Assembly (NCBI GenBank): GCA_041655765.1
Contig: JBBAEU010000003.1
Span: forward strand, 4,923-68,922
Source: Brumimicrobium sp.
Lineage (GTDB): Bacteria; Bacteroidota; Bacteroidia; Flavobacteriales_D; Crocinitomicaceae
DNA length: 64,000 nucleotides
Direction: 5' to 3'
The notes below the pieces were generated by a model, which did not search any database, was not told where the DNA came from, and was given only the letters and a program-made list of their open reading frames with translations. Made by a program: the position numbers and the translations under genes. This document shows positions 21,961 through 22,702 of the stretch, in pieces; the stretch's first letter is position 1; each line of letters starts with the position of its first letter.

Positions 21961-22010
21961 ATGATTTTTTTACTATCTTAATGATAAGACAATTAACAAT
22001 TCTAAATCAA

Positions 22011-22298
22011 ATGCAGTATTACACCTATATCCTATTATGCAGTGATGACTCCTATTATGTAGGAGTTACCAATAACATTGAACGTCGTTTTGTTGAACAT
22101 ACTAACGGAGAAAACTCAACCTCCTACACCTACTCTCGTCGTCCATTAAAACTCGTTTATTTCGAAAGCTCGAAATATATAATTAACGCCATTGCTAGAG
22201 AGAAGCAACTCAAAGGTTGGACACGAAAGAAGAAGGAAGCTTTGATTAACGGGTGGGAAGGGGAGCTAAAAGAGTTAGCGAAGAAGAAGTTTGGATGA
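22011..22298 (+). CDS. Small stand-alone GIY-YIG nuclease (UPF0213/YhbQ-like)
   Basis: YTYILLC..YYVGVTNNIERRFVEH...RRPLKLVYFE...AIAREKQLKGWTRKKK; GIY/YIG tyrosines, Arg, His and Glu retained. Track start is 21981. Confidence 0.92.
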   Translation: MQYYTYILLCSDDSYYVGVTNNIERRFVEHTNGENSTSYTYSRRPLKLVYFESSKYIINAIAREKQLKGWTRKKKEALINGWEGELKELAKKKFG

Positions 22299-22312
22299 TA
22301 CGCTTTTGCCCG

Positions 22313-22360
22313 CCTTCGGTACATTTTTATGCTAAAGCATAAAAACACTCAGTCTGACAA
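22313..22360 (-). repeat. 48-bp REP-like element, inverted copy R1
   Basis: Minus strand reads TTGTCAGACTGAGTG-TTTTTATGC TTTA GCATAAAAA-TGTACCGAAGG; same arms as the forward copies. Confidence 0.9.
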
Positions 22361-22392
22361 AAGCTTGGAAGATCTGTATTCTTTTATAAATA

Positions 22393-22409
22393 TTCGGTAC
22401 ATTTTTATG
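22393..22409 (-). repeat. Truncated extra copy of R1
   Basis: TTCGGTACATTTTTATG is identical to 22315-22331. Confidence 0.8.
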
Positions 22410-22410
22410 G

Positions 22411-22622
22411 TTGTCAGACTGAGTGGTTTTCGACCCCAGGAGGAAACTGTACCGAAGGCTGACTACACTACGTAAATGCCACTCCATTTTCCTTGTCAGA
22501 CTGAGTGGTTTCCGACCCCAGACGGAAACTGTATCGAAGGCTGACTACACTACGTAAATGCCACTCCATTTTCCTTGTCAGACTGAGTGGTTTCCGACCC
22601 CAGACGGAAACTGTATCGAAGG
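22411..22622 (+). repeat. Three direct copies of the 48-bp REP-like element at 82-bp period
   Basis: Copies at 22411-22458, 22493-22540 and 22575-22622; F2 equals F3 and F1 differs at 4 positions; two identical 34-bp spacers. Confidence 0.95.
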
Positions 22623-22671
22623 CGGCAAGGAAAATTCTCCCGAAGGCTGACGCTTTTTCATCCTTTTTCCT

Positions 22672-22679
22672 TACTTTTG
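22672..22679 (+). promoter_or_regulatory. -7 promoter box for the adhesin gene
   Basis: TACTTTTG, 23 nt before the ATG at 22703. Confidence 0.5.
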
Positions 22680-22702
22680 ATTGAAAATTTTTCTACTTGA
22701 TT

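Follow-up and report, generated by a model that had tools for sequence, protein, structure and literature searches.

The question raised by this locus is what a cluster of hairpin-forming repeats with fixed arms and interchangeable tips is for, and which protein might read it. The window analysed here, the whole stretch of 64,000 nucleotides from Brumimicrobium sp. contig JBBAEU010000003.1, houses the entire repeat cluster in a single intergenic stretch (22299–22696). The features of this region, in window coordinates, are as follows:

22011–22298, plus strand: small single-domain GIY-YIG nuclease gene, 95 aa, with its ATG at 22011 (the mechanical open reading frame starts at 21981)
22304–22360, minus strand: R1, full hairpin repeat, inverted, core TTTTTATGC-TTTA-GCATAAAAA (covariance model, 57.6–60.6 bits)
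22393–22409, minus strand: truncated copy, a 3′ arm plus half of an R-type core (TTCGGTACATTTTTATG), found by repeat search as an exact duplicate of 22315–22331 (17 nt)
22411–22467, plus strand: F1, full hairpin repeat, core GTTTTCGACCCCAGGAGGAAAC (covariance model, 64–66 bits)
22460–22492, plus strand: 33-nt spacer TGACTACACTACGTAAATGCCACTCCATTTTCC, found by repeat search and identical again at 22542–22574 (82-nt spacing)
22493–22549, plus strand: F2, full hairpin repeat, core GTTTCCGACCCCAGACGGAAAC (covariance model, 66 bits; ssDNA fold −10.8 kcal/mol, z = −3.0)
22575–22630, plus strand: F3, full hairpin repeat with the core of F2 and a degenerate closing stem (covariance model, 50–55 bits)
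22639–22651, plus strand: solo 3′-arm fragment CCCGAAGGCTGAC, read directly from the sequence

The first-pass annotation had described each full copy as a 15-nt arm, a 22-nt core and an 11-nt arm, and this is confirmed for the four full copies of the window, each of which reads TTGTCAGACTGAGTG + 22 nt + TGTA(C/T)CGAAGG. R1 (22312–22360 within the intergenic stretch) lies on the minus strand, and F1, F2 and F3 follow on the plus strand with a period of 82 nt, starting at 22411, 22493 and 22575. When recounted, the R1 core and the F2/F3 core (GTTTCCG-ACCCCAGA-CGGAAAC) indeed agree at 9 of 22 positions, and both are perfect hairpins as claimed, of 9 bp in R1 and 7 bp in F2/F3; the core hairpin of F1 is slightly imperfect, with one G-T pair followed by a mismatch. 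A feature absent from the first description is that the arms run outward into a closing stem, GTCAG/CTGAC, so that the whole repeat unit is predicted to form one long hairpin; that description likewise lacks the truncated copy, the solo 3′ arm and the extra stem around F3. In the 2.6-Mb source genome (34% G+C) there are five exact occurrences of the 15-nt arm, and arm patterns with mismatches allowed gave 5 and 6 matches in the window, compared with 1.3 and 1.2 expected from shuffles.

The 33-nt spacer and the repeat together make up the 82-nt tandem unit, and the truncated copy at 22393–22409, which abuts F1, resembles the nested copies found in other genomes. F3 is enclosed by an extra 7-bp stem formed by complementarity of its flanks (ATTTTCC at 22568–22574 with GGAAAAT at 22629–22635), and with these flanks its ssDNA fold reaches −15.3 kcal/mol (z = −4.0). 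In a cluster of another genome (G002, L051 3850–3900 and 4495–4620), solo 3′ arms (TGTATCGAAGGCTGACAA) recur straight after full copies, like the window fragment at 22639–22651, and the 3′ arm seems to have undergone duplication on its own. A CRISPR array was ruled out because both spacers are identical; in addition, one repeat copy is inverted.

To follow the fold beyond the window we used a structural alignment of 84 copies, 79 of them distinct. Pairing in the core was said to be kept while its sequence changes, and this holds in the alignment, where 89% of cells form standard pairs, compared with 27–52% when the partners are slid. Cells changed on both sides of a pair number 166 against 57 ± 6 in shuffles of the 84 aligned copies, and such double changes are seen at 14 of the 19 pairs among the distinct copies. 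Equally well founded was the claim that the GA/GA positions are conserved, the four G and A positions being kept in 76–78 of the 79 distinct copies. The pair beside the G-A dinucleotides covaries (U-A in 50 copies and C-G in 24, n = 79), and that on their other side is G-C in 74 and G-U in five, and both strands present a pyrimidine-GA-purine context. Nearest-neighbour and NMR work has established that this context favours sheared tandem pairs in DNA and RNA, and we infer such a sheared geometry for the G-A pairs of the repeats.

The repeat was also compared with known RNA motifs. A kink-turn was rejected, as there is no three-nucleotide bulge beside the G-A pairs and standard pairs bracket them on both sides (the covarying Y-R pair, and G-C in 74 of 79), the unpaired nucleotides of the repeat sitting farther in than the G-A pairs and the pairs that bracket them. 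Hammerhead and other small ribozyme cores and the sarcin-ricin loop were set aside after comparison by eye, their conserved nucleotides and helix count not fitting.

The core itself proved freer than first thought. It had been taken to be always a hairpin and always of the same length; the hairpin part is largely upheld (128 of 138 cores with at least four predicted pairs), but the constant length is not, cores being typically 14–33 nt and sometimes a complete nested copy. They carry many unrelated stems, and six of them consist of a whole copy in inverted orientation. Similarly, of the proposal that selection acts on a folded single strand and not on simple sequence, the folded, one-polarity part stands and the sequence-free part does not, since the arms are nearly invariant across orders of Bacteroidota. 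Apparent arm conservation in the alignment is inflated by the 32 loci (about a third of the aligned copies) that were gathered with an exact-arm pattern; an unbiased check comes from an orthologous site in B. aurantiacum, where the arms are identical to those of R1 and the core is only about 58% identical, forming a perfect hairpin in both. Plain sequence is thus under selection along with structure, and the first-pass interpretation is partly supported. As to polarity, the covariance model scored one strand at 66 bits and its complement at 8.6; in a second comparison of strands the scores were 59 and 14.6 bits. Folded as ssDNA, four of five copies beat their shuffles (z −2.8 to −4.0), F1 being the exception (z = −0.6).

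A covariance model built from ten copies found 13–15 copies in the source genome, most of them solo and far from any GIY-YIG gene, including more diverged solo copies in which a closing stem, TTGTCAGAC...GTCTGACAA, is evident. Within Brumimicrobium the repeat is patchy, with copies in six of the 19 sampled genomes (32, 16, 13, 3, 2 and 2) and none in the others. In an even sample of Bacteroidia, 42 of 401 genomes and 22 of 200 genera had matches, and a pattern scan of one genome per species found the exact arms also in assemblies of Chryseobacterium, Fluviicola, other Flavobacteriales, Sphingobacteriales and Bacteroidales. Together they make up a family of short DNA hairpins in Bacteroidota whose arms are fixed and whose tip varies freely, henceforth referred to as GA-type repeats. 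The element had no match in a scan of viral contigs, and an Rfam scan of the window copies and six other genomic copies returned matches at chance level only (best 27.7 bits against a gathering score of 139.7). For a copy between enolase and pgk, an empty-site comparison was uninformative, as gene order differs and the species share only about 75% identity. One site is shared between genomes: upstream of a gene resembling, by eye, quinolinate synthase (nadA), there is one copy in the source genome (G000, contig C37, 7973–8028) and an inverted pair in G014 (L053 3217–3334), which could represent either an old insertion or a shared hot spot.

The first-pass annotation postulated a protein that recognises the fold, and a candidate partner is now at hand in the adjacent GIY-YIG gene, which it had not listed and whose stop codon lies 14 nt before R1. 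The only Pfam match of the window protein is GIY-YIG (E 1.3e-17, residues 12–85 of the 105-aa open reading frame), no NCBIfam model matches it, and its translated sequence carries Y6, Y16, R25, H30 and E64. In the window the repeats lie only on the 3′ side of the gene. Compared with B. aurantiacum N62 (L054 2722–3009), the gene at 22011–22298 shows 91.7% DNA identity, while its neighbours, an ABC-transporter gene and a large secreted-protein gene, show 76% and 67.5%; the high identity could reflect recent cassette exchange or unusual constraint.

The association of gene and repeat was assessed with the best homologue of the window protein in each repeat-bearing genome (n = 30), searching 1.5 kb on each side. 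The same repeats flank the gene in 18 of these 30 Bacteroidia genomes, about 14 of them on both sides, the homologues being 46–61% identical. Altogether, the covariance model found 66 matches in the 94.9 kb around GIY-YIG homologues of the 30 genomes, and none in 71.9 kb of control loci (Y1 transposases, enolase and other GIY-YIG types). The copies are also oriented with respect to the gene: the nearest one at its 5′ end is plus-oriented in 11 of 16 loci, and the nearest at its 3′ end is minus-oriented, as R1 is, in 10 of 16. Further independent cases of a gene with repeats are G002, in which the gene sits inside a cluster of ten copies, G009, SMAG_U2273 and SMAG_U15444, and an unrelated Bacteroidia assembly has nine or more copies around the gene, on either side of it.

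Some other loci are worth recording on their own account. An open reading frame resembling, by eye, a DUF559-type endonuclease adjoins a four-copy cluster without a GIY-YIG gene in G002 (contig C9, L056 835–1209). Sphingomonas (L096) and Methylobacterium (L097) have GIY-YIG homologues of 46% identity flanked by GC-rich palindromes with the same CTGAG...CGAAG motif, so the GA-type class of sites reaches beyond Bacteroidota. At two other loci (L149 in G244 and L151 in G295) the GIY-YIG domain is part of longer open frames, of 417 and 589 aa, which could represent either fusions with larger proteins or frames that simply run on.

The form of the repeat goes with the end of the protein. Cognate-matching groups were defined by simple patterns, independently of the covariance model. 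Loci of proteins with a ...LPxLSKKKF tail, a group in which we placed the window protein by its ...LAKKKF tail, have the long form of the repeat (with the apical hairpin) in 17 of 19 cases. Those with a ...ECxNxxSH tail have a short form, YGAGCGNAGYCGARG between short stems, in eight of about 14 loci and never the long form, and those with an NPxW tail have neither. A GTCA lies a few nucleotides 5′ of YGAG in both the long and the short form. Placed on the protein tree, repeat type is clustered, requiring three changes against 16.2 in shuffles, and from these sequences nuclease and repeat appear to diversify together. One exception to the pairing is G014, where 16 long-form copies were found and no long-form-type nuclease gene was found beside them. 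The same genome has a GIY-YIG homologue with an NPxW-like tail (L123 1–1500) that is preceded by an unrelated tandem array of units of about 48 nt (GAATCTAACTTCCTTTCTATAAAGGTGATTGAGTCTCCAAAGCGAACG).

The closest described parallel is SsnA of Neisseria meningitidis, a 94-aa GIY-YIG nuclease that binds the hairpin flanking its gene (NTS) only as ssDNA and on one strand only, cuts just upstream of it, with the nucleotides 5′ of the palindrome governing cleavage, and does not bind RNA (Chenal et al., Nat Commun 2025, PMC11893778). The system described here shares with Ssn a single-domain GIY-YIG protein of about 95 aa whose gene is flanked by oriented hairpin repeats of 20–50 nt (on the 3′ side only in the window, in 18 of 30 loci among relatives), many further extragenic copies and clusters, a GTCA-type tag 5′ of the hairpin, and a repeat that is directional, on one strand only. 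The catalytic Tyr/Tyr/Glu are at nearly equal positions too, Y6, Y16 and E64 in the window protein and Y6, Y17 and E64 in SsnA, the latter being the residues that were mutated there (PMC11893778). The repeats themselves differ: GA-type repeats have the tandem G-A interruption and an expandable apical hairpin, and their tag is paired with a 3′ TGAC, whereas the Ssn repeat is a plain 8–9-bp stem with a 4–5-nt loop. The published SRM pattern, HGTCWYN(0-2)YYVSBRHN(0-5)WNVSBRGN(0-2)RNCYNB, which in our implementation does match the NTS consensus, has no match in the copies or anywhere in the genome.

An Ssn nuclease would belong to the cd10448 clade or give a tblastn E value below 1e-10 against N. 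meningitidis SsnA; for the protein comparison here, SsnA was represented by a proxy, a Sinorhizobium (S. meliloti) homologue that carries Y6/Y17/E64 and has NTS-like palindromes on either side. With this proxy the window protein shares 38% identity (E 7e-15), and it is equally close to UPF0213 YazA (38%); in the protein tree it is placed outside the clade of the proxy, which has 100/100 support. Given that the SRM pattern finds no match and that the protein lies outside the proxy clade, we call the system a putative sister-clade variant of the Ssn nuclease–repeat pairing, rather than a proven member of that family. On S. meliloti pSymB (L154, about 2180–2520 and 2830–2960), the dRS3/NTS-like palindromes on both sides of the GIY-YIG homologue read CCTC-ATTCCTGTG-CTCGT-CACAGGAAT-CCAG, and they are missed by the SRM pattern because their tag is CCTC.

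A second group of known repeats, the CGTC-tagged REPs, has no known dedicated transposase, includes the Neisseria dRS3, sometimes has a TGTC tag and also occurs in Bacteroidetes (Di Nocera et al., BMC Genomics 2013, PMC3733652). These are likewise tagged extragenic palindromes whose tag may read TGTC, and they too form clusters and head-to-head dimers, with some copies inside other palindromes. However, their unpaired tag, 8–9-bp stem starting with AT, 4–5-nt loop and CCA tail all fail to fit the GA-type repeats, in which the TGTC (sometimes CGTC) tag faces a complementary 3′ GACA, and no G-A interruption has been described for them (PMC3733652).

On balance, we give a probability of about 60% to the reading that GA-type repeats are the cognate sites of the adjacent small GIY-YIG nuclease, read as folded ssDNA of one polarity. 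It rests on what was observed of the repeat (its anatomy, covariation and polarity), on its association with the gene and on the correspondence between protein subclade and hairpin form. By analogy with SsnA and NTS, the nuclease would probably bind the repeat as ssDNA and cleave a few nucleotides 5′ of the tag, and the pair may have a role in mobility or in the control of recombination. What the protein would read is a fixed module of three parts: the 5′ GTCA tag within TTGTCAG; the stem interrupted by 5′-YGAG-3′/5′-CGAR-3′, that is, by two G-A mismatches with a covarying Y-R pair on one side and a G-C pair on the other; and the conserved GTG and GTA(Y) nucleotides beside the interrupted stem. 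At the tip, any hairpin would suffice, so that the apical hairpin could drift, be replaced or take in a nested copy. The gene with its flanking inverted copies resembles an IS or a REP-RAYT unit. Solo copies would scatter into intergenic DNA and multiply on the spot, giving tandem or inverted arrays, of which the 82-nt F1–F3 array is one.

A bolder proposal would be that the GA-type hairpin, together with GIY-YIG proteins of the ...LPxLSKKKF clade, makes up a self-propagating element of its own kind, mobilised by a bare ssDNA nuclease, with copies landing in DNA hairpin loops. Several signs of mobility are suggestive in this regard. Nested copies invariably have the orientation opposite to that of the outer copy, and flank stems of 6–10 bp, like that around F3, enclose nine of 84 copies against 0.6 expected; moreover, the gene is 92% identical where its neighbours are 68–76% identical, and a patchy distribution within the genus goes together with near-identical arms across orders. 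Even so, we regard this proposal as tentative and rather improbable.

An element acting as RNA, i.e. a transcribed 3′-UTR hairpin involved in mRNA stability, termination or binding of a protein, with the GIY-YIG adjacency being secondary, would account for the position of the solo copies, which follow stop codons at distances between a few and about 130 nt (mostly under 45), some seven of nine in the direction of the upstream gene, and for a copy on contig C35 (514–569) that is followed by a canonical intrinsic terminator. Tandem G-A pairs are stable in RNA too, the copies folded as RNA do slightly better than their shuffles (z −1.1 to −4.2), and many REPs are considered transcribed in published surveys (PMC3733652). 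Yet the clusters mix both orientations, nested copies are inverted, no Rfam family matches, and a strong tie to one nuclease clade with matching hairpin forms would be unexpected of a UTR element; nor does SsnA bind RNA (PMC11893778). We consider it unlikely that this is the main role of the repeats, although an RNA role and a nuclease-site role do not exclude each other.

Could the repeats, alternatively, be selfish palindromic DNA without a dedicated protein, spread by recombination or replication slippage and merely sharing intergenic landing spots with GIY-YIG cassettes? The tandem arrays with identical spacers (the 82-nt unit) do look like local duplication, and both the many solo copies and the patchy distribution within the genus are in keeping with such an origin. 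Shared landing spots, however, leave unexplained why hairpin form matches protein subclade, why about 14 loci, belonging to many families, have copies on either side of the gene, and why the arms are near-invariant across orders, where neutral sequence has diverged, all of which makes this explanation decidedly unlikely.

Finally, REP/BIME elements with their RAYT proteins (Nunvar 2010; Ton-Hoang 2012), as far as they are covered where cited in PMC11893778, are also extragenic hairpin repeats in mosaic clusters, with inverted copies flanking a small nuclease gene and folded single-strand recognition expected; here the partner is GIY-YIG and not an HUH/Y1 transposase, RAYT genes do not co-occur with the repeats, and there is no GTAG tag, the GA-type arm reading TTGTCAGAC. 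That GA-type repeats are themselves classical REP/BIME elements mobilised by a RAYT (an IS200/IS605-type Y1 transposase) was already disfavoured and is highly improbable, for although they are short extragenic palindromes in BIME-like mosaic clusters of alternating orientation, and the source genome has one Y1_Tnp gene, the association was rejected on co-occurrence and on the control search: the richest genome, G002 with its 32 copies, lacks a Y1_Tnp gene; in G014, with 16 copies, no such gene exceeds the family cut-off; several genomes rich in Y1_Tnp genes have no copies of the repeat; and the covariance model found no copies at six Y1_Tnp loci.

At a practical level, this repeat fragments Bacteroidota assemblies and produces spurious open reading frames, and the present analysis gives it a name. 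The wider interest lies in the nuclease, preferably read as the partner of the repeat. No site-specific nucleases other than the Ssn proteins have been described as cutting ssDNA exclusively, and the rules by which these recognise their sites derive from a single class of repeat. Another, widely distributed architecture, with a G-A-interrupted stem, a tip that may be any hairpin and an apparent match to a distinct protein tail, would offer natural material for testing how a protein of 95 residues recognises a folded DNA strand, and would widen the choice of enzyme–site pairs for ssDNA tools.
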